Shown piece after piece: positions 7,725 through 26,600 of a stretch of DNA of 64,000 nt. Made by a program: the position numbers and the translations under genes. The number at the start of each line of letters is the position of its first letter. Position 1 is the first letter of the stretch. The stretch spans positions 71,601 to 135,600 of the forward strand of contig JASFQB010000004.1 in NCBI GenBank assembly GCA_050115675.1, given 5' to 3'. The notes beneath the pieces were generated by a model that was not told the origin of the DNA, ran no database searches, and saw nothing but the letters and a program-made list of their open reading frames with translations. This DNA is from Candidatus Woesebacteria bacterium (GTDB lineage Bacteria; Patescibacteriota; Saccharimonadia; Saccharimonadales; EFPC-124).

Positions 7725-7801
7725 AGGGGTGTAGCTCAGTTGGCCAGAGCATCGGTCTCCAAAACCGAGGGCCGGGGGTTCGAGTCCCTCCACCCCTGCC
7801 A
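7725..7801 (+). tRNA. trnW: tRNA-Trp (anticodon CCA), CCA end encoded
   Basis: Manual cloverleaf. Acceptor AGGGGTG/CACCCCT. D arm GCTC-AGTTGGCCA-GAGC. Anticodon arm TCGGT-CTCCAAA-ACCGA. T arm GGGGG-TTCGAGT-CCCTC. Discriminator G followed by CCA. Confidence 0.9.
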
Positions 7802-9370
7802 TATAGGACGTAATTGATTTATGAGCTCGGAATTGCCCTCACTAACAGATGTAGCGAGGGCTTTTTCAAAAGTTCGGTTAGCCATTTTTTGACCTTCCAA
7901 AAATTGAACCGTTTCGGCTGTCTTTTTGGCGATTGCATTTGTGAGTTTTGTGTATGTAACAGATAGAGCATCGCCGTTTGATACTAGTTTTTCGAATAGT
8001 TCGGTTATTATGACGCGTTTTTGTTCTGGAACTTTGCTGGCGTAAATCTCAGCGGCCTTCTGAGACAATTCTAAAACCGTCAGACCGCCTTCAAAGTCTG
8101 ATTGCTGTTGTTCTTCAAGTTTGTTGAGCTGATCAATCAAAGAGGCTTTTTCGGCCATGAGCTGATCGTGCTTAGCTTCATAGCGTTCTTTGGTGATGTC
8201 GCCAGCTAGCTTGTCGTCGTAAAGCGTTTCGTCCATGAGCTCAATGCGGCTCAGTTTACTATTGACGAGCGTTACACTTTGCTCGTAGTACTGGGCGCCG
8301 TTTTGAGACTCTGCGCGAATTGCCTCGCTTGTCCAGGCAATGATTTCCTGTGATGGGCTTACGAGCTTTTGTAGCGTCTCTAAGACAAGTTCCTCGGCAC
8401 GATCTTCGCGCAGGAACTTAAGACCCTTGCAGGCAGCATCCTTGCGCTGGCACGTACCGTAATAGCGCTCTTTGTGACGTTCCCATGTTACGGTTGCGCC
8501 ACAGTTTTGACAGCGAATCATATTCTTCAGCACGGGATTGTGTCGAGCCCGCAGCATTGGTTGCTTGTTGTGTAGCTTCTTTTGTACTGCGTTGAATAGC
8601 TCTTTACTGATAAGCGGTTCCTGCGCTCCGGGATAGTCTTTGCCGTCAAAATGGTTGATACCAATGTAAAATGGGTTGCTGAGCATTTTGTGGACGTAGC
8701 TCTTGCTATGCGGTCGGCCTTTGCGCGTCACTATGCCGTTATCCTTCATGAACTCGGTAATAGTGAGAACTGAATGGTTTGGTTCTAGGTATATGCGGAA
8801 CACTTTGCGCATGATACTTGCGGTGGCCTTGTCGATAATATGAATACGCTTACCACCGCGCGTAACGGTGATATAGCCTGGCGGCGGTGGCGCAGGCAGC
8901 CACCCTTGTGCCAGCTTCTCGGCCCAGCCTTTCATTGCTTCTTCACGCAAGTTATCTGTGTACTTTTTGGCAACCGATAAATGGATGTTCCACATAAACT
9001 TAACGTCAGACTTGGCATTCTTGTGTACGAGTAAGTTTTCCTTCACGGCATGTAGTCGCCGATCCTCGTCTTGCTCAAGCCAGTCGTCGATAGCTACTGC
9101 ATCACGCATGTTGCGTGTAAATCGGTCAGTCTTTTCAACGGCCAAGTGATAGATGTCATTCTTGGAGATGTAGTGCAGCATTTCTGTGAAGACCTTACGA
9201 CTTTGCTGCTTGGACGCCGTCTCGGCAATCTTGAATACTTTGACGACCTTAAAGCCTTTTGCTTGGCAGTATCCAGTAAGTAACTTCACCTGTGAGTCAA
9301 GCGAATAGCCCTCATCCTCTTGCGCCTTGCTTGATACACGCGCAAGTATTACTGCGTTAGTTTGCCCCAT
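7736..9370 (-). CDS. large serine recombinase (integrase)
   Basis: N-terminal resolvase domain with AVILARVSSKAQ (catalytic Ser). Also a recombinase domain, a zinc ribbon CQNCGATV...C...C and a long coiled-coil. The last ~22 codons are antisense to tRNA-Trp (..WQGWRDSNPRPSVLETDALAN). Confidence 0.9.
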   Translation of the reverse strand: MGQTNAVILARVSSKAQEDEGYSLDSQVKLLTGYCQAKGFKVVKVFKIAETASKQQSRKVFTEMLHYISKNDIYHLAVEKTDRFTRNMRDAVAIDDWLEQDEDRRLHAVKENLLVHKNAKSDVKFMWNIHLSVAKKYTDNLREEAMKGWAEKLAQGWLPAPPPPGYITVTRGGKRIHIIDKATASIMRKVFRIYLEPNHSVLTITEFMKDNGIVTRKGRPHSKSYVHKMLSNPFYIGINHFDGKDYPGAQEPLISKELFNAVQKKLHNKQPMLRARHNPVLKNMIRCQNCGATVTWERHKERYYGTCQRKDAACKGLKFLREDRAEELVLETLQKLVSPSQEIIAWTSEAIRAESQNGAQYYEQSVTLVNSKLSRIELMDETLYDDKLAGDITKERYEAKHDQLMAEKASLIDQLNKLEEQQQSDFEGGLTVLELSQKAAEIYASKVPEQKRVIITELFEKLVSNGDALSVTYTKLTNAIAKKTAETVQFLEGQKMANRTFEKALATSVSEGNSELINQLRPIWQGWRDSNPRPSVLETDALAN

Positions 9371-9422
9371 ACCCTCTCCTTGTTATTATTTTATCAGCTA
9401 TGAGTGCGCGTAGGGCGTGCAA

Positions 9423-9587
9423 CTAGGCTTCTTCGGCAAGAGCCTTAAAGAACCGCACTAATGATCGCCCGATCTCTAGCGCTTCGTCATAAGTGACAGG
9501 TTTGCACTGTTCTTTTTCAAGGATAAGCCGCAAGGCCTCTATCCTCTCTGGTTCTAGCGCAATGATGTCACCCTCATGACTACTCAT
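9423..9587 (-). CDS. small acidic protein (54 aa) upstream of the integrase; possible directionality or accessory factor
   Basis: Below the track cutoff. My translation: MSSHEGDIIALEPERIEALRLILEKEQCKPVTYDEALEIGRSLVRFFKALAEEA. Same strand as the integrase, divergent from the XRE gene. RBS is weak. Confidence 0.35.
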   Translation of the reverse strand: MSSHEGDIIALEPERIEALRLILEKEQCKPVTYDEALEIGRSLVRFFKALAEEA

Positions 9588-9653
9588 AGTCCCATTTTAA
9601 CAAGTACTGAATGAAAAAGCTACTGTGAGTAGTCATTTTCTTATCCACAGGTG

Positions 9654-9662
9654 TGCTATAAT
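9654..9662 (+). promoter_or_regulatory. extended -10 promoter giving a leaderless XRE transcript
   Basis: TGCTATAAT ends 7 nt before the ATG at 9670. The palindrome CTACTgtgAGTAG (~9621-9633) lies upstream. Confidence 0.55.
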
Positions 9663-9669
9663 CTAGACA

Positions 9670-9891
9670 ATGAATATCGAATATCAGCAAGTCTTTGGCA
9701 AACGTGTGCGCGAGCTTCGTAAGGAGCGCGGACTAAGCCAGGTTGAGCTTGCTTCTAAGGTTGGCATTGACCGCAGCTACATGGGTTTCCTGGAGCGCGG
9801 CGAGCGCAACCCTAGTCTTGAGATGATTGCAAAGATCGCTGAAGCTCTGAGCGTGACGCCCGACGAGCTGCTAAAGAAGTCAGCTAAATAG
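9670..9891 (+). CDS. XRE-family helix-turn-helix regulator
   Basis: FGKRVRELRKERGLSQVELASKVGIDRSYMGFLERGERNPSLEMIAKIAEAL is a classic HTH_3 pattern. Confidence 0.85.
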   Translation: MNIEYQQVFGKRVRELRKERGLSQVELASKVGIDRSYMGFLERGERNPSLEMIAKIAEALSVTPDELLKKSAK

Positions 9892-9922
9892 CGCTTTATA
9901 GTTCTTTTTGAGACTAAGGCAA

Positions 9923-9955
9923 ACTGTCACCAAGCACGGTGACAGTATTTCTATT
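9923..9955 (+). terminator. terminator after XRE gene
   Basis: ACTGTCACC-aagcac-GGTGACAGT (9 bp) followed by ATTTCTATT. Confidence 0.55.
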
Positions 9956-10883: not shown

Positions 10884-11141
10884 CTACTCGGCTGTCACGA
10901 TCTCCACCCAGTCAACTCGGCCAAGCGCCGCGTTTACAAAGTCGGCAATCAGACCAACCGGCTCAAACTCATACAGCTCTTGCACGAGCTCTTCGAGCTG
11001 TTCTGCTTTACTATGCACACTGCCGTCCTCGGCTTTTAGCGCCACCAGCGCGTTGTAGCTTGCTTGCTCATTGTTGAGCCAAAGCGCCACTAACCACGTC
11101 TCGTAATTGCTCCAACCGTTGTATCCTGTCGTTTCACTCAT
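10884..11141 (-). CDS. small acidic protein (85 aa) of a type seen on plasmids and phages
   Basis: N-terminal NGWSNYETWLVALWLNN motif. GAGGAG RBS. Lies downstream of the DUF3768 gene on the same strand. Confidence 0.5.
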   Translation of the reverse strand: MSETTGYNGWSNYETWLVALWLNNEQASYNALVALKAEDGSVHSKAEQLEELVQELYEFEPVGLIADFVNAALGRVDWVEIVTAE

Positions 11142-11225: not shown

Positions 11226-11540
11226 CTAATATTCACTGGCGAGCATAACGGTCAGGACTCGCCGACACTTCAACGAAAGCGGGTCCTCTCCGTACTCAAG
11301 TGTCTGATTGTAGTACGATATTTTCCAGAATACCTTTTCGCCAAACCAATGCACGACACCAAAGTCATGTTCACCATACGGATCATTTTCCTCGGTAAAC
11401 TGGTTGAACCGACGAATCTCATCGATCAACCCGCCAAGATCCTCTAATACTTGCACGCCTGGCGTTACCGTAACCCCAAACCCACTACGACGGAACACGT
11501 CATTTTTCATCGCAATCTGAATCGTTTCTTCTGTCTGCAT
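11226..11540 (-). CDS. DUF3768-family protein
   Basis: ENDPYGEHDFG...FWKISYYN...RVLTVMLASEY matches the family signature as I remember it. AAAGGAGG RBS. Confidence 0.75.
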   Translation of the reverse strand: MQTEETIQIAMKNDVFRRSGFGVTVTPGVQVLEDLGGLIDEIRRFNQFTEENDPYGEHDFGVVHWFGEKVFWKISYYNQTLEYGEDPLSLKCRRVLTVMLASEY

Positions 11541-11580
11541 AGCAAACCTCCTTTTAATTCTTATTCCTGAACGGAATCGA

Positions 11581-11699
11581 CCTTCCCGCTCACGGCCGGG
11601 GCAAGGGGTAAATTGGTCGAGTCAAGGTGGAGCGCCTCACCGGACGAACGACCTTGGGTCGGGCGATTTACCCCTTATCATGGAGAGGCAGTGGGAAGG
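11581..11699 (+). other. 119-nt GC-rich imperfect long hairpin (candidate ssDNA promoter, oriT-associated structure or structured RNA)
   Basis: CCTTCCCGCT pairs with AGTGGGAAGG. AAGGGGTAAAT pairs with ATTTACCCCTT. TGGTCGAGTCAAGGT pairs with ACCTTGGGTCGGGCG using three T.G pairs that work only on the plus strand. The right arm carries TTGGGT-16 nt-TATCAT. Confidence 0.6.
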
Positions 11700-11776
11700 C
11701 TAAGCCTTAGCTGTGCCACCAATCTTTGGCTATGAGGTACTGTGGTAATTGGCGAGAATAGTTATAAAATATACAT

Positions 11777-14242
11777 GTGAGGAAAGATAACGAATCCTTT
11801 TTGACTTTTACTCGGAATCGGCCAACTCGTATAGCGTTCGTTGTCGATATCAAGGAAGAAAACGCCTACAGAACGATAGTAGACCTTATTTGTGACGCCT
11901 CAAAAAAGTGGGGTGGTCGTTATTACCAAATTATCCCAGCCGCCAAGGGCACCGTTTCAAAGGTATGGATTGAATACTTAGCGGCATATGACCCCGACCT
12001 AATCTATACCTATTACTCTCTAGCGCCAAAGACGGTGCAACAAATATCGGAAGTCAGCAGCCCCCTCGCGTTCATGAATGCTCAATTCAAAGGCGTGCCG
12101 AATCATCCCTTCGACCCCGTGGATATTTTTCCAGATAATCGCAACACTGCCATGCTATGGCGAAACCCGGTTCAAACTCCCGAAATATTATCGTTTGACC
12201 TCGGTGGGTTTTCGCCCACCGCACCACAATATATTACTGATTTCGTCATGCTGAACTTCGGCACCATCCAGAACGACCTCGCCAATATTAACGCCATAAA
12301 ACAATCGCAAGTAATACTTACAAAGCCGCCAGCTCAGACGGAAGAACAGTTTTTGGAGGCGATGAAGAAGCTCGACGAATGGAATAGGCGGATTTATCCC
12401 ATAGAGTATTCGATGATCCCAGGGCTGACTTATGAATCAGATAGGGATTTAACAAAGGAAACAACGACTGTATATATTGGTGACGAGCCCCTAGACCTGA
12501 TCTATTATTGGAATGACGCGCTGCTGCGCCCTGACTGGCTTACGCACCAGAAAAACCAGGCCATTTTGCCTACAAAGTTCATTGAGGACGAGAAGCTAAG
12601 GCTCGCGGTACGAGGCTGGCTGACCAAGTTCATCAGACAGGAGAACGGTAACTCAAGTCTTCAACGAGTAGAAATTGTTTCGGCTTCCGTAAGCCTTACT
12701 AAGCTGCAAGCATACGCCAAACAGCTACTTGATGGCACTTATATCTTCCATCAGGAATCAAAAGTGACCGTGCCGATCATCCCCAAATACTCCACGCACA
12801 TAGCTACTACGCCCGACATGACATCATTTAGCGTTTCGGGAGATTCATTCACGGTTAATGTTCCCTCGATTGATGTCGTACAGGGAGTAATGGGCGGCCA
12901 AAAGTGGATGACCGACGTGTTAATCGAGCGAAAAGACCACAATGAGCATCGCCAGCCACTAAAAGATTTTTGGCTTCAGTTGCCGCTCAACAATAGCCTG
13001 ACCCTGTTATTAACAAACCGTACGCGCGCCGCACGAATAAATCGTTTGGGATTTTTGTCGGTGCCGCTTTCGCGAGATGTAGATGACCTGCGGCTAACCG
13101 TAAATATTCCAGATGGTGCAAGGATAGCCGAATCAATACTCCGTGCGGACAAAAACAGCATTTTCTATAATGGCGACTTACGACAAGGAAAAGAAGACTA
13201 TCCGTTTTCAGGCGCTAAAAGTTCGACAGCCGGAAAGGCGCTTCGTGGAGCAATACATCTATTCAGAGAGCTTCCCGAAGCGGCAAACTTCTTTCAAAGT
13301 GATTATTGGCGTGACATTTTTATGATTATGGCTGGACAAGATCCATTAGGCAGTCCAAAGACGAAGCAAGCCCTAGAGAACGCTATAAAGAAGAATTTTA
13401 GCAAGGTAAAGCAAACGATCGAGAATGACGTAAGGAAAGGGTTGGCGACTACAAAGCAGCCCGTATCTCAAAAAGTGGTAGATTTTTGGTCTAATAAAAT
13501 TGGATACTTAGCCTCCGATCTTCGAGCAAGAACCGACGTACAGGAGATAGGGTTTTTTGATGATGTTCTTAAAAATAAAGTAGCGGAAGCCAATAAAAAC
13601 GGTGATAAGGAACGATTCGCCGAGTTAAGAGAACGTATGCTTGGCACCCTTGACTGGCTTATCGCAAATGGCATTTTCAGTATCGGCACCCTTAACCACT
13701 GTCGGAGATGTGGATTAAAAGAGTGGCATTCTGTCGATGACCTAAAAACCGACAATGCTTGTCGCGGGTGCGGCAATTCCTTTACTGTTGCCCCTGAACA
13801 GCAGTGGTGGTATAAGCTCAATAGCCTGATATCGAGCGAGGGCGGCATTTACAATCAGGTTCCACTCATCTTAGCTCTCGGTGAGCTTTATGAAGGTTCA
13901 ACATCCTCCTTCATGTACTTCCCGCCGGTCGATGTCTACACTGGCAAAGGTTATAGATTACTAACCGATTTAGATATTTTTGCGATTGTGGATGGCAAGC
14001 TCGTAGTCGGTGAGGTTAAAAACAGCGCAGCGCTATTTGACGATGAAGAAATCGATAAGCTGTTAAAGGCGGCCGCTCGGCTCAAACCTTGCCGTGTCGT
14101 GCTTTTTGCGCCAGACAAACCTAATCAGGCCCTTTTAGACAAAGTCAGATTGTTGAATCAACAGTATTCGGCAAAAGGAATTACAGTTGAATGGCTGAAC
14201 ATGACTCATCTCTGGGGCATGGGTAGTCTTTGGAACATATAA
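11777..14242 (+). CDS. large hypothetical protein (821 aa) with C-terminal zinc ribbon and PD-(D/E)xK-like nuclease motif
   Basis: CRRCGLKEWHSVDDLKTDNACRGCGNSF is followed by LTDLDIFAIVDGKLVVGEVK (D...ExK). The N-terminal ~650 aa are unrecognised. Start codon is uncertain (GTG at 11777, directly after TATAAAAT). Confidence 0.6.
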   Translation: MRKDNESFLTFTRNRPTRIAFVVDIKEENAYRTIVDLICDASKKWGGRYYQIIPAAKGTVSKVWIEYLAAYDPDLIYTYYSLAPKTVQQISEVSSPLAFMNAQFKGVPNHPFDPVDIFPDNRNTAMLWRNPVQTPEILSFDLGGFSPTAPQYITDFVMLNFGTIQNDLANINAIKQSQVILTKPPAQTEEQFLEAMKKLDEWNRRIYPIEYSMIPGLTYESDRDLTKETTTVYIGDEPLDLIYYWNDALLRPDWLTHQKNQAILPTKFIEDEKLRLAVRGWLTKFIRQENGNSSLQRVEIVSASVSLTKLQAYAKQLLDGTYIFHQESKVTVPIIPKYSTHIATTPDMTSFSVSGDSFTVNVPSIDVVQGVMGGQKWMTDVLIERKDHNEHRQPLKDFWLQLPLNNSLTLLLTNRTRAARINRLGFLSVPLSRDVDDLRLTVNIPDGARIAESILRADKNSIFYNGDLRQGKEDYPFSGAKSSTAGKALRGAIHLFRELPEAANFFQSDYWRDIFMIMAGQDPLGSPKTKQALENAIKKNFSKVKQTIENDVRKGLATTKQPVSQKVVDFWSNKIGYLASDLRARTDVQEIGFFDDVLKNKVAEANKNGDKERFAELRERMLGTLDWLIANGIFSIGTLNHCRRCGLKEWHSVDDLKTDNACRGCGNSFTVAPEQQWWYKLNSLISSEGGIYNQVPLILALGELYEGSTSSFMYFPPVDVYTGKGYRLLTDLDIFAIVDGKLVVGEVKNSAALFDDEEIDKLLKAAARLKPCRVVLFAPDKPNQALLDKVRLLNQQYSAKGITVEWLNMTHLWGMGSLWNI

Positions 14243-14253
14243 GAGCCTAGTGG

Positions 14254-15597
14254 CTATAATTTTGGCTGAATAATTTGCTCAGGCGGTTTATCGTCATGAT
14301 TCCACTCGACCGAAGCTGAACCGTTAATCGACTTCTCCCATCCTTCTGAGCTTTTGGAAGGATAGCCTTGCGGTCGATTTATGCCATCGTAGAGCCATAC
14401 GTCAGCGACATGCGACGTGCCTCCGACGCCGAAGTAGTAGCCATTTGGCATTTGTCGCCAAGCAAACCACGCAAGTTTATCACCCCGTACCCTCATATGC
14501 ACCCCATGATCATCATTGGATAGCCCCGATAGTGCCGCTTCAATCGGAAAATCTGGATTGTAGTGATGGTGAATGTTCTTAAACTGAGCCGTCTGCATGT
14601 AGAGTAAGCTTCTTAGGCTAGTTTTTGATTCGTGATATTCTCGACGATCGATTTGCAAACCCCCGTTATCCACGCCCCGTACGCCCGTCATCTTACGCAT
14701 ATGCTTTTGGTAGTCGCGCATTTTTCGGTTCTGTATGTTAACGGCCTTCTTGAACTCTTGAAGGCAAATTGACGCTTCGCGATAGTTGCTTGTTTGGGCA
14801 AGCTGTTGTCGCCAAAGACCTATAAAATTGCCGAACAGCCCGAGACGAACATTTAAATGTACGATGATCGCAAGCCATACATGCCGCGGCATTTGCCTTT
14901 TATCATTGAAGCTGGGCAGTGAATACGCAAGAGATTCATAACGCATTACTATGGCGAAAATGTAGACTGTCGGCAGTAACGCCAGTGGTAACAGTATCGA
15001 GAGGAGTAATTCTTCGGTGGATTGGTGGACTTCCTTCTCGGACCAATTTGAGATTATCGTGGCAGTTGTGCGCCATACAAGCCATATGCCTAGTATTGCG
15101 AGTACCCCGTCAACTAATCGCTTCGCCGGTTTTTGCTCTGGCTCCCTTGCTGCAACGCTCAAGATTGAGAGAAGCGAAATAATAGGCAGCAATATTAACT
15201 CACCAACAAGCGAGAATGGTTCAAGGCCGATATAGATAACAAGCAGTGCCGAGACGCCAACCGCATCGCGAAGAGTCTTCTTTATTAGGCTGTCGGCGTC
15301 TTTGGCGGTACTCGCATTCATAAACATAGGCACGCCGACAAAAAGGATGATGACGACAGTGTCGATGAATAAGCTGTCGTGCCATAATTTGAGATGGTCC
15401 GCTAGCGTAACTACACCTATTGAGTAAGCAAAATACACAGTGAACGGTACGATAATCTGCCATTTTGCCATCGATCTTAGAACATCAAGCAACGCTGGCC
15501 ACGCTACACGACGTACTTTAGGCCACACTGCTAGGCCAATAACTATAATCACCGACCATATCAGCGTAGCGATTTGACGATTATCTAACTCAAACAT
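14254..15597 (-). CDS. polytopic membrane protein (447 aa) with soluble C-terminal domain
   Basis: Multiple hydrophobic segments in the first ~260 aa. Begins 26 nt downstream of the ATPase gene on the same strand, so probably co-transcribed. Confidence 0.6.
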   Translation of the reverse strand: MFELDNRQIATLIWSVIIVIGLAVWPKVRRVAWPALLDVLRSMAKWQIIVPFTVYFAYSIGVVTLADHLKLWHDSLFIDTVVIILFVGVPMFMNASTAKDADSLIKKTLRDAVGVSALLVIYIGLEPFSLVGELILLPIISLLSILSVAAREPEQKPAKRLVDGVLAILGIWLVWRTTATIISNWSEKEVHQSTEELLLSILLPLALLPTVYIFAIVMRYESLAYSLPSFNDKRQMPRHVWLAIIVHLNVRLGLFGNFIGLWRQQLAQTSNYREASICLQEFKKAVNIQNRKMRDYQKHMRKMTGVRGVDNGGLQIDRREYHESKTSLRSLLYMQTAQFKNIHHHYNPDFPIEAALSGLSNDDHGVHMRVRGDKLAWFAWRQMPNGYYFGVGGTSHVADVWLYDGINRPQGYPSKSSEGWEKSINGSASVEWNHDDKPPEQIIQPKL

Positions 15598-15623: not shown

Positions 15624-18320
15624 CTACAAGCTATGCACCTTTGATTCAGTTTGTGCTTCTTGCTGCTTATTAATTTTTCGAGCAGGTGGCCTTTTCCTTA
15701 CCTCGCCCGTTATTGTAAGTAGCTGCTCTATCTGTTTCTCGACGGAAGCTTTAGGCTTAGCGTAGAGCTTCCGGCTGCTTTTGACAACTTGCTTTGCAGT
15801 GCTACTAGATTCATCTACTTCAAGAGGTACGGTCTGCCCCGAAAATGCGTCCTCACTCTCGTCACCTGTAACCTTCATGTAGAAATGATACGGCGCAAGG
15901 TTCACAATGTCACCCTTTTCAACCTCGGGCTTCATGTATGGCAATATGAAGTCCTCGTCCTCTGGGTTAGCCTTAAGGCAAATAATCGTTGCTGCGTTCC
16001 CGGCGATTACTTTCACTAGGTCTTTATCTTCCATTTGTGCGATGTTCTGGTGTGACACGATCAGTGAAACATGGAACTTGCGCCCTTCGCTGGTGATTGC
16101 GCCAAACTGTGGCGTAGCAAAGTTTTGGAACTCATCTACGTACACAAAGAAGTCGCGCCGTTTCTTTTCAGGTATCTTGGTCCGCTGGTATGCTGCCATC
16201 CAGATGAGCGCCGTCAGAATTGTGCCGAAGAATTCACTCTGGTCTTCACCGATGTCACCTTTAGATAGGTTCACGAGCAGGATTTTACCTTCATTCATAA
16301 TGTCAGCAATTCGCACAGTCGTTTCTTCTTGCAGCAGGATGTGCCGCGACATTTTGCTAGTAATGAAATGCCCCAATCTATGGGTAAGTGGCGCAGTAGC
16401 AGCCGACATTTGCATGCTACCCATCATCTTGAATTCTTTTTCCCAGAATTGTTTGAGTACGGGGTCTTTAAGCGTTTTAGCTACTTCTTTTTGGTATTTC
16501 TTGTCGGTTAGTAATTGCTGCAAGGTGTAGAGACTGGGCTTTGGAGTTTGCAACGCCGTAAGCGTAGTATTGCGCAGGATGTGTTCCATGCGCGGCCCCC
16601 ATTGTGCTTCGTCGGACAGTTTCTTGAATACAGACAAGACGGCACTGGTAATCCAATCGTGTTTGCTGTCTTCATTTTCAAAATCAATACCAGGGTCGAG
16701 GATGTTCAGCCCAACGGGATGGTCACGATCGGATGGATCGAGTACGACTACATCTTTACGGCGGTTTTCTGGCACGATGGCAAGTAACTCGCGTAACATA
16801 TCACCATGCGGATCAAGGACGGCTAGGCCTTTGCCGTTGAGCATATCTTGGTAGATGGAGCTTTTCAGCAGGGTTGTTTTACCTGTACCAGTTTTTCCAA
16901 TGATGTAGGTGTGCTTTTGGCGCTGCTCTAACGTCATACCAATTTCTTGTATCTCGCCACCAAAGAGGTTTGCGCCAACAGTAACATCCAGTTTTGTTTC
17001 GCTGTGCTTAATAGATAGTGGCGTGGCTAGCTCACGACTGCGGCTCTTCACTAGGCCTTCTGTTTTGGTGAGATCGGTGTTTGGGAAGTGATAGAGGTCG
17101 GCTAGTTCTGAGGCGGAGAGGATAGTTTGCTGGGTGAAGATGTGGCGAAGTAGTGAACGATTGCGGAACCGAGCGATCCATCTATCCGCAGTATTGATGA
17201 ACGGCAAACAGCTTCGAGTTTCAATCCGCTGGTAGGTGCTAGAAAACGTGTCAAACGAAGACGTAATGGCATTGATGCGCGTCTGGTTTTCACTGGCGTC
17301 CTGCGAAGCAATAAGGACTCTCATAGATATCTCGAACAACTGTTGATCTAGTTTTTGCTTAATGGCTTTGCCAAGCTCCTGCTCGTATGGATTGTCGGCT
17401 GGTTTCTTGTGGCCACTTTTCCAATCCGCAGGCAGATCATTGGTCGTAATCGCCTCGATTACTCCTGCAACGATCTTTGCGCCCATTGCTATAAGCCAAA
17501 ACGGTGCTAGTAATGCCCGAAGCATAATGCGCGGCGCGTTAATCTTGTACTTGGTTAACTTTGGCGTAAGCTGCTTGTTGAGCGCGATTCTGTGCTCGGT
17601 GTTTCGTGTGTGTCGCAGTTCATTAGGGTGCGTGTTGCTAAAAACAGGTACGGCAACTATCTGAAAGGCAATTAGCGCATCGGTTGGCAGGCTGCGCATG
17701 TGGCCAGTGAGGTACGCTATAGGATCATGCTCGTCCAAGGTTTTGTGGTCGCCTAGCGGTAGCACAAAGTCGCTTGCAAGTTTTAGCTCGGCTATGCTGG
17801 TGGGAATGCTTCCCGAGTCGGGCAAGTAGTCATTAACCTCTGCGATTTTAAGGCCGGGCAGATATGACAATAACGTGCGTTTTACGGTTTCAACCTCGCG
17901 CTTGGGTATACGGATGACGTACCGGATACCTCCGTCGCGAGTCGCAACCAGCTCCAAAGAATACGGTTGCTTGCGTGCGGCCAGATTATCCCAAAAGCCG
18001 TAGTATTTCACCATGCTGCGCATCAGGATATGCAACTGCTCGGTCGCATAGGCAGATTTAGAAGTGTCTGCCGGAAATGTGAGCTGCAAAAAAGTATACT
18101 CAGGCTCCGCGTTGCCAATGCCAAAACGACGCAGGGCAAAGGATAAAAACGTACGAGAGTATTGCCCGAGTTTTATAAGGAGGTAGATGATAACGTAGGC
18201 GACGCCAAATTCAAACAGAAATGCACCAATGACAACAACCAGTGTCCAGCCGTCACTTAAGTGATGTTCTTGCGTATAGCGAACGGGGCCGTTAATTATT
18301 GTGTCCAGAATACCCGGCAT
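15624..18320 (-). CDS. membrane-anchored TraD/VirD4/FtsK-HerA-superfamily P-loop ATPase (coupling-protein or DNA-translocase-like)
   Basis: N-terminal TM segments. Walker A YIIGKTGTGKTTLL. Walker B FFVYVDEFQNF. SLIVSHQNIAQM also present. Confidence 0.7.
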   Translation of the reverse strand: MPGILDTIINGPVRYTQEHHLSDGWTLVVVIGAFLFEFGVAYVIIYLLIKLGQYSRTFLSFALRRFGIGNAEPEYTFLQLTFPADTSKSAYATEQLHILMRSMVKYYGFWDNLAARKQPYSLELVATRDGGIRYVIRIPKREVETVKRTLLSYLPGLKIAEVNDYLPDSGSIPTSIAELKLASDFVLPLGDHKTLDEHDPIAYLTGHMRSLPTDALIAFQIVAVPVFSNTHPNELRHTRNTEHRIALNKQLTPKLTKYKINAPRIMLRALLAPFWLIAMGAKIVAGVIEAITTNDLPADWKSGHKKPADNPYEQELGKAIKQKLDQQLFEISMRVLIASQDASENQTRINAITSSFDTFSSTYQRIETRSCLPFINTADRWIARFRNRSLLRHIFTQQTILSASELADLYHFPNTDLTKTEGLVKSRSRELATPLSIKHSETKLDVTVGANLFGGEIQEIGMTLEQRQKHTYIIGKTGTGKTTLLKSSIYQDMLNGKGLAVLDPHGDMLRELLAIVPENRRKDVVVLDPSDRDHPVGLNILDPGIDFENEDSKHDWITSAVLSVFKKLSDEAQWGPRMEHILRNTTLTALQTPKPSLYTLQQLLTDKKYQKEVAKTLKDPVLKQFWEKEFKMMGSMQMSAATAPLTHRLGHFITSKMSRHILLQEETTVRIADIMNEGKILLVNLSKGDIGEDQSEFFGTILTALIWMAAYQRTKIPEKKRRDFFVYVDEFQNFATPQFGAITSEGRKFHVSLIVSHQNIAQMEDKDLVKVIAGNAATIICLKANPEDEDFILPYMKPEVEKGDIVNLAPYHFYMKVTGDESEDAFSGQTVPLEVDESSSTAKQVVKSSRKLYAKPKASVEKQIEQLLTITGEVRKRPPARKINKQQEAQTESKVHSL

Positions 18321-22855: not shown

Positions 22856-24613
22856 ATGAATATTCGTAGAATTGAAATCAGTAATTTCAGAGGCATCAAA
22901 GAGTCTACATGGGTGATCCCAGATGATCGCAAGTTTATTTGCTTAATTGGCCCAGGCGATAGCGGAAAGACCGCGCTACTTGATGCCATACACTATACGC
23001 TTGGTGATCGCTGGAGACTAAGCATCTCAGACACCGATTTTTATAACTGCGATACCGCTAATCCTATCTGCATCCGAGCAGTTATAGCGGATATACCTAA
23101 AGAGCTACTCAAGGAATCGGCTTTTGGGTTGCACTTAAGCGGGATCGATGACGAGGGCAACTTGCATCAAGATCCTGAAGATGGGCTCAAGGCGTGCTTA
23201 ATAATACAGCTCAAGGTCGATGAAACGCACGAACCTATCTGGTCGGTCGAACGAGTTGATGGTTCTGATGGTGTAGAAATTCGATCGAGCCAGCGGCATT
23301 ATCTTGCGACGTTCAAGGTTGATGAGCGAGCTGACGTTCATTTAAGGTGGACATCGACCTCGGCATTAGGCAGACTATCGCACGACAAGAATAGCGCTGT
23401 CCGCGCTATGGCCAGCGCAGCGCGTGCAGCTAGCAAAGCAATCTCGGAACATGAAGACGCTGAGCTAGCTAAGCTTACGGATCAAGTACAAGCAAAGATC
23501 AACGAGGCGGGTGGAGGCAGCTTCTCTTCAATTAAGCCGGGGCTAGACACGTCGTTATCTTCAGTTGGCGGAAATTTAGCCCTGTACGAAGCGGATATAC
23601 CTCTCACAAATTACGGCCTGGGCACTCGGAGGATATCAGGCCTTGCCGTGCAGCAGATTGCTGCCTCTAATAAATCCCTACTCTTAGTAGACGAGATTGA
23701 AACAGGCCTTGAGCCTCATCGGCTGGTTAGGTTGATCCACTATCTTCGAGAAGATAAGGCATATTCTCAGGTCTTCATAACTACACATTCACCTGTTGCG
23801 GTGGAACAGGCTCTTACTGAAAATCTAGCTGTAGTCCGTAGTAATGACGACGGAGTTACAAACGTAGCATTCTTACCTGATGGCACTGGAACCGCCTTAA
23901 AGTTGCGTCGATCGCGACCGTCATCCTTCTTAGCCAATCGAATACTTGTGGTTGAGGGTAAAACTGAAGAGGGGCTATTGCTCCATTCTGTAACGACATG
24001 GGATAAAGAAAGAATACGAACGGGACTTCCAGTTGCGGCAGGAGAAGGATCTGTGATTCAAGACGGCCAAGGTGGCTCGGACGCTCCCCTTCGGGCAATA
24101 GCTCTGTCGGAGCTAGGTTACGATGTCGCGGTTTTCATCGATAATGATGATTCATCCGTAGACGAGCATGTAGCGGCTGCGCAGGGCCTAGGTATCAATG
24201 TTATAAGGTGGGAAAAAGACAACAACACCGAACGGCAAATCATATTTTCACTCGAGGCCCAAGAGCTTAACAGTTTTCTACTGCTTGCTAAAAGCACCAG
24301 AGGTGATGAGACGACCGTACTCAATGATCTTCACTCTGCCGGTCTCCCTGTAGAGTGCACTACCTTAGATGTGGGTGATTGGAGCGCTCACGGTGTTAGC
24401 ACCGACGATGCAAAGCAATATGTAGCAAAAGCAGCCGCACATAAAGATCGGAGCTGGTTTAAGACGGTCGATGGCGGCAAGCTTCTGGGCGGTTGGATCG
24501 AAGAAAATAGTCCGCAGTTTAACAGCACAGTAGTTAGAGAAAAGCTCGAAGAGGTGAAAAACTTTCTCTATCCGACGCAAGAGCAAGCCGAGACGGAAGA
24601 TGTGGGAGAATAA
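22856..24613 (+). CDS. gajA: Gabija GajA-like OLD-family ATPase/TOPRIM nuclease
   Basis: MNIRRIEISNFRGIK..LIGPGDSGKTALLDAI (ABC-type P-loop). LLLVDEIETGLEP (Walker B) and FITTHSP. TOPRIM ILVVEGKTEEGLL and VFIDNDDS. Confidence 0.8.
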   Translation: MNIRRIEISNFRGIKESTWVIPDDRKFICLIGPGDSGKTALLDAIHYTLGDRWRLSISDTDFYNCDTANPICIRAVIADIPKELLKESAFGLHLSGIDDEGNLHQDPEDGLKACLIIQLKVDETHEPIWSVERVDGSDGVEIRSSQRHYLATFKVDERADVHLRWTSTSALGRLSHDKNSAVRAMASAARAASKAISEHEDAELAKLTDQVQAKINEAGGGSFSSIKPGLDTSLSSVGGNLALYEADIPLTNYGLGTRRISGLAVQQIAASNKSLLLVDEIETGLEPHRLVRLIHYLREDKAYSQVFITTHSPVAVEQALTENLAVVRSNDDGVTNVAFLPDGTGTALKLRRSRPSSFLANRILVVEGKTEEGLLLHSVTTWDKERIRTGLPVAAGEGSVIQDGQGGSDAPLRAIALSELGYDVAVFIDNDDSSVDEHVAAAQGLGINVIRWEKDNNTERQIIFSLEAQELNSFLLLAKSTRGDETTVLNDLHSAGLPVECTTLDVGDWSAHGVSTDDAKQYVAKAAAHKDRSWFKTVDGGKLLGGWIEENSPQFNSTVVREKLEEVKNFLYPTQEQAETEDVGE

Positions 24614-26051
24614 CACGCCCGATGACCTTGAGCTACTCTCGATGGCAGTTCTCGAAAACGCTCCATGCGCTCTTGAGATGCCAGCCGGTACGGGAAAAAC
24701 ACACCTTTTAGCCAAGGCGGTGTATGCAGCGCATAGCGAAGGGGCCAGATCACTCATCTTAACTCACACCAACGCTGGGGTCGATGCACTTAAAAAGCGT
24801 CTTAAACGGTTTGGCGTTCCTTCATCGGCATTTAGAGTCGATACCATTACCGGCTTTGCTTTTTCCCTTGCACGAGCCTACACCACCATTGGAGGTGTGA
24901 CAGTGCCAGCTACACCTGACTGGACGGAGTCAGATTCGTATATCCAAGGGGCTATAAGAGTTGCTGGAGCAGACTCCATAGGAATGATGCTTGCCAATTC
25001 CTTTGAGTATTTCTTCGTAGATGAATATCAGGATTGCAATATCAGACACCATGAGCTTGTGCGATCTATCTGCACATCAATACCCAAAACTGTGGTACTT
25101 GGCGATCGACTGCAGGGCATTTTTGGCTTTGCTGGGGAGAGGTTGGTTGATTGGGATACTGATGTTATTCCGTGTTTCCCTCTTCTGAATGTTAATCACA
25201 CTCCTCACCGTTGGCGAGACGTAAATCCTGAACTGGGATCATGGCTCCAAGCTATACGTCCTTCGATGAACTCTGGTGTGACGCTCGACTTGCAGACAAT
25301 ACAAGTCCCTGGCGTAGAGTGGTTACAGAGCGGTGATGGAGTACTCGCCAGCAAGGCCTTCTCGTTTAGTGATTACAATGAAACTGTTCTGCTGCTCGAC
25401 AAGTGGCCTGCCTCCGTCGCTGACCATGCTAGTCGCCTCGGTGGGGCTTATGTCGTCATGGAAGACATTCGGGGGAGGTTTATGCATGATGAGCTGAGTC
25501 TTCTCCCACAGAGCAATTCTTTTATGTTAGCGCACTGGCTAGCGCAGTTTGCTAAGAAATGCATGGTTGGTTTAGCTGGGATTGATGCTCCAGTGCTTCG
25601 GAAGCTGGAAAGCAATCAATCAATAACTCACTATCAGCGAGATGGTATTGCAGACATCTTGACGGCTTTAGACGAGCTGAGGCAAGCTCCTTCCTATACA
25701 ACGCTGTGCTCTGTTGCCGAAAAACTATCAGGCCACAATGACACCAAATTGTATCGTTGGGAGGCATGGCGAGATACTTTGTCGGCTATAAGGAACTCAA
25801 AGGATGGCGAAACGAACCCGCTTGATGAGCTTGCTGTGATAAGAGATAAAATACGTCATACTGGACGCAAACAGCACTCACATGTAGCATCTCGAACCGT
25901 GCTTGTGAAAGGCTTGGAGTATGATCACGTGATTATTGCGGATGTTGCCAACCTGCTTGACCCCAAGAACCTATATGTCGCACTAACAAGGGCACGGAAG
26001 ACAATTACTATAACATCTTCGAGTAGATACCTCCGACTAGCTGATGATTAA
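24600..26051 (+). CDS. gajB: Gabija GajB-like UvrD/PcrA-type helicase
   Basis: MPAGTGKTHLL (motif I), FFVDEYQDCN (II), LGDRLQGIFGFAG (III), YVALTRARKTITI (VI). Overlaps gajA by 14 nt. Confidence 0.8.
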   Translation: MWENNTPDDLELLSMAVLENAPCALEMPAGTGKTHLLAKAVYAAHSEGARSLILTHTNAGVDALKKRLKRFGVPSSAFRVDTITGFAFSLARAYTTIGGVTVPATPDWTESDSYIQGAIRVAGADSIGMMLANSFEYFFVDEYQDCNIRHHELVRSICTSIPKTVVLGDRLQGIFGFAGERLVDWDTDVIPCFPLLNVNHTPHRWRDVNPELGSWLQAIRPSMNSGVTLDLQTIQVPGVEWLQSGDGVLASKAFSFSDYNETVLLLDKWPASVADHASRLGGAYVVMEDIRGRFMHDELSLLPQSNSFMLAHWLAQFAKKCMVGLAGIDAPVLRKLESNQSITHYQRDGIADILTALDELRQAPSYTTLCSVAEKLSGHNDTKLYRWEAWRDTLSAIRNSKDGETNPLDELAVIRDKIRHTGRKQHSHVASRTVLVKGLEYDHVIIADVANLLDPKNLYVALTRARKTITITSSSRYLRLADD

Positions 26052-26600
26052 TTCCTGTAGCTGGTTTCTGTTAATGAGAATGCAGTTATTGTATCTGGCA
26101 ATTTCAACAGCCGGGCCACTAAACAGTCCGTTAGTGATCACCATGCTGCGCTCGCAGCCATATTTATTAAGTCCGGCTATTACTTGCCGCACGGCAGCAA
26201 CCTTCACAAGACCTAAACTTCGTTTTGTCTGAACACCCCATCGAATGCCATCCTTGTGAGCAATGATGTCTACGCCCCAGTCGTAGCGCTCAGTCAGCGT
26301 GACGTTAGTAAAACCTCGCTTCTTGAGCAGTGCTGCAATATAGCGTTCAAACTCAAGGCCGCTCATAGTATCGATCTGCGACATGCCCGCATTGCTTAAC
26401 GAGTGGCGTCTCTTTAGCCGCTTAGATATAGCAACCAGCGCATAAACGATAACGCCAGTCGTGACGATAATGGATGAATAGGCGAGAACTCTGGCTGCCA
26501 TATCAACCGTAAGCCCGTACGCATGTGCCACAAGCCCAGCAAGTATGAGTGGCACTGCAATACTGTCGCCACCCTTTTTGCGATAGCATCTACGAGCCAT
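26037..26600 (-). CDS. membrane-anchored Mrr-type (restriction endonuclease-like) nuclease domain protein
   Basis: Two N-terminal hydrophobic helices. Then LEFERYIAALLKKRGFTNVTL..DWGVDIIA...VQTKR, typical of the Mrr_cat domain. Convergent 15-nt overlap with gajB. Confidence 0.7.
   Translation of the reverse strand: MARRCYRKKGGDSIAVPLILAGLVAHAYGLTVDMAARVLAYSSIIVTTGVIVYALVAISKRLKRRHSLSNAGMSQIDTMSGLEFERYIAALLKKRGFTNVTLTERYDWGVDIIAHKDGIRWGVQTKRSLGLVKVAAVRQVIAGLNKYGCERSMVITNGLFSGPAVEIARYNNCILINRNQLQELIIS

Follow-up and report, generated by a model that had tools for sequence, protein, structure and literature searches.

A widespread, unnamed family of bacterial proteins with a predicted zinc ribbon-nuclease module, a large N-terminal region and a candidate role in immunity

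In Shedu, a defence system encoded by a single gene and lacking an NTPase, gating of the C-terminal PD-(D/E)xK nuclease is attributed to a variable or large N-terminus. In Card1, Can2 and VC1899 a Rossmann-like sensor is followed by an effector of the restriction-endonuclease fold, and NERD, the Mrr-type (type IV) enzymes and EcoT38I contain a PD-(D/E)xK core with a D...ExK motif and often lie beside restriction-modification (R-M) systems. The anticodon nuclease PrrC is triggered when the neighbouring R-M enzyme, EcoprrI, is inhibited. TgvAB is a type IV defence system embedded in a type I R-M operon (bioRxiv 10.1101/2024.04.04.588119). We analysed a gene at positions 11777..14242 (+ strand) of a 64,000-nucleotide stretch of contig JASFQB010000004.1 (the whole stretch is called the window here) from a Candidatus Woesebacteria bacterium, the 821-amino acid product of which, or its family, has some likeness to each of these systems. 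Homology searches place the protein in a widespread and never-named bacterial family, and its C-terminal region is predicted to contain a zinc ribbon and a PD-(D/E)xK nuclease. The most likely function of this protein, inferred from gene context, is immunity against phages or foreign DNA, a reading towards which we lean with a confidence slightly above even.

The initial annotation, made from the sequence of the window alone, had described an 821-amino acid open reading frame (ORF) at these coordinates, and a complete ORF with a GTG start was indeed present there. The start codon is supported by the alignment of M1 and the residues that follow it in all 15 close homologues, and the sole ATG upstream is directly followed by a stop codon. 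The gene is monocistronic in the window: its upstream neighbour is divergent and its downstream neighbour convergent. Comparison with a homologue that is 89% identical (locus L001) gave a ratio of nonsynonymous to synonymous substitution rates (dN/dS) of 0.06, at a dS of 0.72. The target is a real gene under purifying selection. Its product is 100% identical to a 'hypothetical protein' from a Candidatus Woesebacteria metagenome-assembled genome (MAG), and it has no P-loop.

We assessed conservation in an alignment of 87 family sequences with a mean identity of ~25% to the query. Six residues of the C-terminal region, C642, C645, C662, C665, D733 and E746, were invariant, K748 was conserved in ≥90% of the sequences, and D731 was invariant in the close clade. 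Since this conservation persists at such low overall identity, the cysteine and D...ExK motifs are not chance occurrences. The cysteines, which are four of the six in the protein, make up the CxxC-x16-CxxC ribbon that had been proposed initially (C642-R-R-C645, 16 residues, C662-R-G-C665; residues 642-665, 13700..13771, + strand). A structural model generated with AlphaFold2 (AF2) places beta-hairpins at residues 634-641 and 648-652, and weak matches to Pfam zinc-ribbon models (Zn_ribbon_IS1595, TFIIB and YjdM) were obtained in 5 + 3 + others of 53 diverse family members. With its two CxxC knuckles, hairpins and conserved set of ligands, the segment has the features of a four-cysteine zinc ribbon, and it is predicted to bind zinc.

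The ribbon is followed by a predicted PD-(D/E)xK nuclease domain (residues ~688-810, 13838..14206, + strand), with the core motif LTDLDIFAIVDGKLVVGEVK (residues 729-748, nucleotides 13961-14020, + strand) containing the D...ExK signature. The full-length AF2 model, built from 15 sequences, had a mean predicted local distance difference test (pLDDT) score of 69, with values of 80-88 for the C-terminal 180 residues. In this part of the model we observed a canonical alpha-beta-beta-beta-alpha-beta nuclease core, comprising helices at residues 691-707, 756-769 and 784-800 and strands at 712-715, 718-721, 728-732 (to which D731 and D733 are assigned), 734-738, 741-747 (which includes E746 and is followed by K748) and 773-777. 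D731 and D733 thus share a strand, and the catalytic pair E746 and K748 belongs to the one after it. The best matches of the C-terminal part in Foldseek searches of the PDB were VC1899 (1xmx, probability 0.98), EcoT38I (7e8r, probability 0.96, root-mean-square deviation (rmsd) of 5.1 Å over 123 columns) and Can2 (8bao, probability 0.82-0.85). Conservation, model and structural matches thus agree with the nuclease core that was first noticed in the sequence. The initial annotation had also named the lack of a nuclease fold as an outcome that would count against it, and a PD-(D/E)xK core was seen in the model. We therefore assign the C-terminal domain, on the basis of sequence and model, to the PD-(D/E)xK superfamily fold with a catalytic D...ExK set on the expected strands, and predict that it is active. 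Among the individual families of this superfamily, NERD (PF08378) did not match the target and matched only one of the 53 family members (E 4.8e-5), and Mrr_cat and Mrr_cat_2 matched neither the target nor any of the 53 members in Pfam searches.

The modest Foldseek scores would also be compatible with a nuclease-like domain that is catalytically dead and serves for DNA binding or oligomerisation, the protein then being a regulator or a scaffold. Inactive PD-(D/E)xK domains do exist, as exemplified by Pfam NA-iREase1. However, dead nuclease domains normally lose their catalytic residues, and in this family D733 and E746 are invariant, K748 is almost so across the 87 sequences, and all three are on the expected strands. 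We consider a dead domain highly improbable.

The last helix before the ribbon, the ribbon and the nuclease appear to form a unit that has moved between proteins. A 768-amino acid protein from a Bradyrhizobium plasmid (L076 4426-6732) and an 832-amino acid protein from a Rhodococcus plasmid (L077 4168-6666) matched the family profile by hhalign, with probabilities of 99% and 98%, respectively, only over columns ~607-772, which correspond to these three elements. Their N-termini are unrelated to the target family, indicating, by profile comparison, that the C-terminal module is shuffled among different N-termini. Swapping of one effector between proteins with different N-termini is a typical trait of conflict systems. 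The Bradyrhizobium copy adjoins an Abi-family gene, DUF2971 and a PrlF/YhaV toxin-antitoxin pair.

The N-terminal region had been described initially as carrying no recognisable motif, and this is borne out by our searches, in which the first ~640 residues remained unmatched in Pfam, PADLOC, NCBIfam and PDB sequences. An AF2 model of residues 1-640 from an alignment of 55 sequences had a pLDDT of 84.6 and a predicted template-modelling (TM) score of 0.77, and showed a Rossmann-like part (~1-335), a beta-rich part (~336-470) and a helical stalk (~480-632). From the model and the conservation pattern, residues 1-335 (11777..12781, + strand; pLDDT mostly 85-97) are predicted to fold into two or three Rossmann-like alpha/beta subdomains, and R15, W45-G46-G47, D72-P-D74, N160-F161-G162, G235 and W245-N246 are conserved in this segment throughout the family. 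A predicted beta-rich middle domain follows (residues 336-470, 12782..13186, + strand), with the near-conserved residues D380, P403 and R420 and the consensus motifs WMxD..IE, WWxLP and RIxxxG. The predicted helical region (residues 471-634, 13187..13678, + strand) begins after a conserved S483/G486/G491 loop, includes W511-R512 and contains long helices at 527-552, 565-585, 591-607 and 614-630, the last of which belongs to the shuffled C-terminal module. Across the 87 sequences R15, D72, D74 and G486 were invariant, and W45-G46-G47, N160-F161-G162, W245-N246, D380, R420 and W511-R512 were conserved at ≥90%. Taken together with the dN/dS of 0.06, these conserved columns show that the gene is functional and that the effector and the N-terminal region are each under specific constraint.

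Foldseek comparison of residues 1-640 with the PDB and with viral models (BFVD) returned generic alpha/beta folds only, with TM scores of 0.1-0.2 and an rmsd of ~19 Å. An origin of the N-terminal subdomains by duplication was considered and rejected, since hhalign showed no internal repeat among them. Searching the PDB with the family profile gave only sub-threshold matches, to S-layer CWB2 domains and short zinc fingers. The CWB2 matches, to Clostridioides difficile proteins, lay at residues 45-93 and were not significant (E 0.12-0.14), nor was the Foldseek match to Cwp6 (5j72, probability 0.77). We also considered whether subdomain 1 could be a Toprim domain, because the family has a DxD motif and a phage DnaG Toprim domain in BFVD was matched, again without significance (probability 0.11). 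However, the conserved glutamate that follows strand 1 in Toprim is absent from the family consensus, and the invariant D72xD74 lies before strand 3, whereas the Toprim DxD lies after it. The assignment to Toprim was rejected on these motif grounds and on the scores.

The protein had been called an orphan in the initial annotation. In the sense of having no relatives this does not hold, and what the family lacks is a name. A word-indexed protein search identified 15 homologues of 806-821 amino acids with 40-100% identity, those with names being from Patescibacteria, and the same search with the 87-sequence profile returned the same 15 and one other protein. When a profile of the close homologues was run against 1.84 billion cluster representatives (clusters at 50% identity), 2,927 were matched at E≤1e-3, including 475 at E≤1e-30, and most of the best 150 of the 2,927 matched from end to end with lengths of 790-830 amino acids. 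A scan of one genome per species provided 57 loci, distributed over Bacteroidota, Cloacimonadota, several lineages of Patescibacteria, Armatimonadota, Bdellovibrionales, Poribacteria, Gamma- and Betaproteobacteria (including the isolate Azonexus sp. IMCC34839), Acidobacteriota, Planctomycetota, Nitrospirota and Gemmatimonadota, and in Piscirickettsia salmonis and Burkholderia glumae full-length members are plasmid-borne. In ~4 of the 57 loci (L048, L050, L052 and L054) the gene is broken up into two or three ORFs, as a result of frameshifts, pseudogenisation or errors in assembly. No phage-borne copy was found among 50,697 phage genomes (INPHARED) or in IMG/VR.

Every named copy is labelled 'hypothetical protein', and a literature search found no paper describing the family. 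Scans of the target against Pfam, PADLOC, NCBIfam and PDB sequences gave only noise. For the 53 diverse members no Pfam family spanned the bulk of the protein, the matches being confined to the weak zinc-ribbon models and the single NERD match, and PADLOC gave nothing credible, with four single near-threshold matches (E 0.0016-0.0074). Judged by homology, the target is a member of a widespread bacterial protein family that has never been named.

The genomic context was surveyed at ~65 loci overall. No partner gene was conserved across them, as judged by blastp and phmmer clustering of the neighbours, but R-M, STAND, HEPN, PLD or Gabija genes lay within ~10 kb of the family gene in at least ~18 of the ~65 loci, a raw count over loci that are partly non-independent (12 are from Poribacteria); most of the others had recombinases or transposases nearby. 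Genes for restriction and defence were frequent neighbours. In four Poribacteria loci (within L033-L037) the family gene has HsdS directly upstream and HsdM directly downstream, and in a Bacteroidales, a Saccharibacteria and a Parcubacteria locus (L013, L014 and L031) it closes an hsdM-hsdS-hsdR-ygjP operon. In five further Poribacteria loci (L038, L040, L042, L044 and L050) it lies just downstream of a type ISP enzyme, and in L032 just downstream of a pair formed by a PLD-SNF2 helicase and an Eco57I-like methylase. Other neighbours included a type III system, HNH and PDDEXK_5 (L007), HEPN_LA2681 and PLDc_2 (L011), STAND/NACHT NTPases (L067, L072 and L075), DUF2726, RhuM and Schlafen-AlbA_2. 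In L075 a GGDEF-domain gene (9023-9943) lies 57 bp upstream on the same strand, after an nSTAND NTPase. It is possible that this gene, a single case, hints at a nucleotide signal as input.

The placement within and beside R-M operons raises a narrower form of the immune function, in which the protein would be an accessory or back-up nuclease of restriction systems, acting either as a type IV-like cutter of modified DNA that evades classical R-M or on inhibition of the R-M enzyme. TgvAB provides a precedent for a type IV system inside a type I operon (bioRxiv 10.1101/2024.04.04.588119). On the other hand, R-M genes are not adjacent in the majority of loci, the window among them, which means that coupling to R-M cannot be obligatory, and the R-M-linked loci are confined to a few clades. 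Moreover, no SRA, EVE, YTH, DUF262 or Mrr_cat domain was detected in the target or in the 53 members. We regard this narrower role as unlikely.

A protein of ~370 amino acids with several invariant CxxC pairs, belonging to no Pfam or PADLOC family, was encoded one or two genes away from the family gene in five loci (L007 8017-9138, L010 663-1868, L019 3544-4653, L020 12425-13519 and L030 1969-3087) and ~6 kb away in a sixth (L014 18389-19480). This multi-zinc-ribbon protein was rejected as a conserved partner, being found at 5-6 loci only and absent from the window. It did not prove to be a paralogue of the target; a role as facultative partner is possible.

The second recurrent association was with mobile elements. 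Serine recombinases occur near the family gene in the window and in seven other loci (L001, L006, L020, L026, L046, L071 and L073), and tyrosine integrases, Tn3/IS transposases, ParB, RadC and toxin-antitoxin pairs were also seen. On the B. glumae plasmid pbghn2 (L070, NZ_CP052134.1, 3287-11364) three tandem tyrosine recombinases are followed by a 174-amino acid hypothetical protein and then by the family gene. This recombinase set resembles a 'recombinase in trio', and betaproteobacterial chromosomal copies are likewise flanked by integrase-sized genes.

In the window itself, the gene content of the region from about 7.7 to 33 kb is that of a conjugation-like integrative element in a Woesebacteria genome of the candidate phyla radiation (CPR). 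The element starts at a tRNA-Trp gene (7725-7801, + strand) that overlaps with a large serine recombinase ORF (7736-9370, - strand) at the 3' end of the latter. This overlap is probably the integration site; no att repeats of ≥12 nucleotides were found at the tRNA-Trp end. Beyond about 34 kb the GC content, ~0.47-0.51 before, drops to ~0.40-0.43, and the right end of the element may lie there. A small DUF7249 protein (10884-11141, - strand) is encoded between a relaxase-like gene and the target, and a 104-amino acid DUF3768 protein (11226..11540, - strand; Pfam E 4.8e-24) is encoded divergently from the target. The placement of these two genes is reminiscent of leading-region or anti-restriction genes in conjugative elements, and a literature search found no paper on DUF3768. 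Downstream of the target are a convergent membrane-protein gene (14254-15597, - strand) and a gene with a library match to TrwB/TraD-like coupling proteins (15624-18320). The initial annotation had placed the gene on a mobile element that also carries Gabija and an Mrr-type nuclease, and we could identify each of these: a complete Gabija pair, with GajA (22856-24613, PADLOC E 4e-163) and GajB (24600-26051, PADLOC E 3e-131), and, after them and convergent, a 187-amino acid Mrr_cat nuclease (26037-26600, E 6.8e-24). An HTH_3 regulator, Replic_Relax, RadC, ParA and an amidase are further encoded by the element.

Alignment of the window with L001 by blastn showed that exactly positions 11226-14250 (L001 9464-12429) are shared, at 82.4% nucleotide identity. 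This block of 3 kb consists of the DUF3768 gene, the intergenic hairpin described below and the target gene. In contrast, the backbone proteins of the two elements (serine recombinase, Replic_Relax and coupling protein) are only 30-45% identical. The presence of a conserved block inside diverged backbones therefore suggests, from these alignments, that DUF3768 and the target form a two-gene module exchanged between diverged elements. The long imperfect hairpin (11577..11725, + strand), located in the intergenic region upstream of the target, has a predicted folding energy of -71 kcal/mol, with z -4.8 for the + strand versus z -0.9 for the - strand, and its pairing is retained in L001 through compensatory changes. 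It had no match in Rfam and was absent upstream of six other close homologues. We rejected it as a family-wide regulator, since it is present in the window and L001 only; possible identities are a regulatory 5' leader, an inverted repeat specific to the element (oriT-like or single-strand-initiation) and a small RNA.

These observations bear on the possibility that the gene serves the mobile element itself, through exclusion of competitors, post-segregational killing together with DUF3768, or DNA processing during integration or transfer. Its position between the Replic_Relax protein and the type IV coupling protein in the window and L001, the conserved block with DUF3768, the three recombinases that precede the B. 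glumae copy and the frequent serine recombinase or integrase neighbours are all in keeping with such a role. However, DUF3768 accompanies the family gene in the window and L001 only, and the same is true of relaxase and coupling-protein neighbours, so that the consistent linkage to transfer or replication genes, which the initial annotation had named as an argument against defence, is not what we found. For many copies the surroundings are a chromosomal R-M operon or housekeeping genes, without a recombinase in the vicinity, and the recombinases that do accompany the gene are of unrelated families (serine, tyrosine and DDE), as would be expected for cargo rather than for core machinery. A service to the element is, in our judgement, quite unlikely.

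Several results weigh against an immune function. The nuclease is backed by modest Foldseek scores (E 3e-3 to 9e-2, TM ≤ 0.24, in a model with an overall pLDDT of 69), and PADLOC-DB 2.0.0 contained zero families matching the target. The neighbourhood count is subject to the limits stated with it, and a minority of the neighbours in the context sample were annotated individually. Other selfish functions would account just as well for an association with mobile elements. Ordinary neighbours were seen in L005 and in Mesorhizobium (L074), and in six Cloacimonadota genomes (L015, L017, L021, L022, L024 and L025) the family gene occupies a conserved slot among purL, purQ and purH, with purL/purQ (often with a PF01637 ATPase_2 gene) on one side and a class-V aminotransferase and purH on the other. 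This slot is more suggestive of stable residence in the chromosome than of turnover in an island, which is unusual for a putative defence gene.

The Cloacimonadota slot and the ordinary neighbours in Mesorhizobium, together with the strong purifying selection and a length of ~800 amino acids conserved over many phyla, would suit a housekeeping nuclease of DNA repair, recombination or RNA processing with no role in conflict. The distribution of the family is nevertheless patchy, mostly with one copy in scattered genomes, plasmids included; neighbourhoods are highly variable, with no recurrent partner from a repair pathway; and the split or frameshifted copies noted above, as well as one MAG with two copies (L042 and L043), are at odds with a housekeeping gene. 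We consider this explanation very unlikely.

Immunity thus remains the function that we favour. In the mechanism that we infer, the target would be a stand-alone, NTP-independent and metal-dependent PD-(D/E)xK endonuclease, with D733, E746 and K748 as the catalytic residues, probably aided by D731, and the zinc ribbon ahead of the nuclease would probably position the nucleic acid. The ~630-residue N-terminal module, with its Rossmann-like part, beta domain and helical stalk, would act as regulator or sensor, and a strictly conserved pocket formed by R15, WGG 45-47 and D72xD74 may bind a ligand, a metal or a partner. This module would hold the nuclease inactive until invading DNA or infection is recognised, after which the released nuclease would cut DNA, the presumed substrate. 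By its context, the gene is single-gene cargo of integrative elements and plasmids and lodges in or beside R-M operons. A more far-reaching proposal, which we find doubtful and put forward tentatively, is that the family constitutes an unrecognised and widespread class of single-protein immune sensor-nucleases, in which the nuclease is licensed when a second site (the R15/WGG/DxD pocket) binds a metal, a small molecule, a phage protein or an anti-restriction protein, the helix-zinc ribbon-nuclease cassette is a portable effector used on several unrelated sensors, and the insertions in type I and ISP loci reflect a back-up to R-M.

If the protein is an immune nuclease, a widespread single-gene system has been missed by current defence-annotation resources. 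Its ~2,900 clusters cover ultra-small Patescibacteria and Proteobacteria as well as sponge-symbiont Poribacteria, together with plasmids of pathogens of fish and rice, and none of the libraries searched offers a structural precedent for its candidate sensor module. The target also provides a compact test case, with distinct residues to mutate: D733, E746 and K748 for the effector, R15, D72 and D74 for the candidate sensor. The R-M-embedded copies would, if the function is as proposed, add to the known defence genes that reside within type I R-M operons, and the element in the window gives insight into the cargo of the poorly understood conjugation-like integrative elements of CPR bacteria.

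The likeness to Shedu lies in the overall plan of a single gene, without an NTPase, for a large N-terminus and a C-terminal PD-(D/E)xK nuclease. The term 'Shedu-like', used in the initial annotation, is apt as an architectural analogy. As a statement of membership it fails, since DUF4263 (PF14082)/SduA was searched for and matched neither the target (E≤1) nor the 53 family members (E≤0.01). The target is also about twice as long as Shedu, has a zinc ribbon and carries an unrelated N-terminus. Card1, Can2 and VC1899, the best structural matches of the C-terminal part, share the order of a Rossmann-like region followed by a restriction-endonuclease fold, but there is no sequence similarity and TM does not exceed 0.24. 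Foldseek found no CARF match in the PDB for the N-terminal model, and the annotated loci examined contained no cas genes, CRISPR or cyclic-oligoadenylate context. The D...ExK core and the frequent vicinity of R-M systems are shared with NERD, the Mrr-type enzymes and EcoT38I; in contrast to NERD and Mrr enzymes, the target matches neither NERD nor Mrr_cat, is without a winged-helix or modified-base reader domain and has a much larger N-terminal module. What the family has in common with PrrC and TgvAB is its genomic placement within type I R-M operons, where it is flanked by hsdS and hsdM in Poribacteria and closes the hsd operon in three other taxa. However, PrrC, an ABC-ATPase anticodon nuclease, and TgvAB, which is GmrSD-like with DUF262 and DUF1524 domains, are both unrelated to the target, and the embedding is clade-specific in the target family rather than universal. 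By the tests made, then, the target is not a member of Shedu, Mrr or Card1/Can2, and the searches indicate that the family and its N-terminal architecture are absent from every curated library consulted. The novelty of the family lies in its undefined sensor and not in a new principle.

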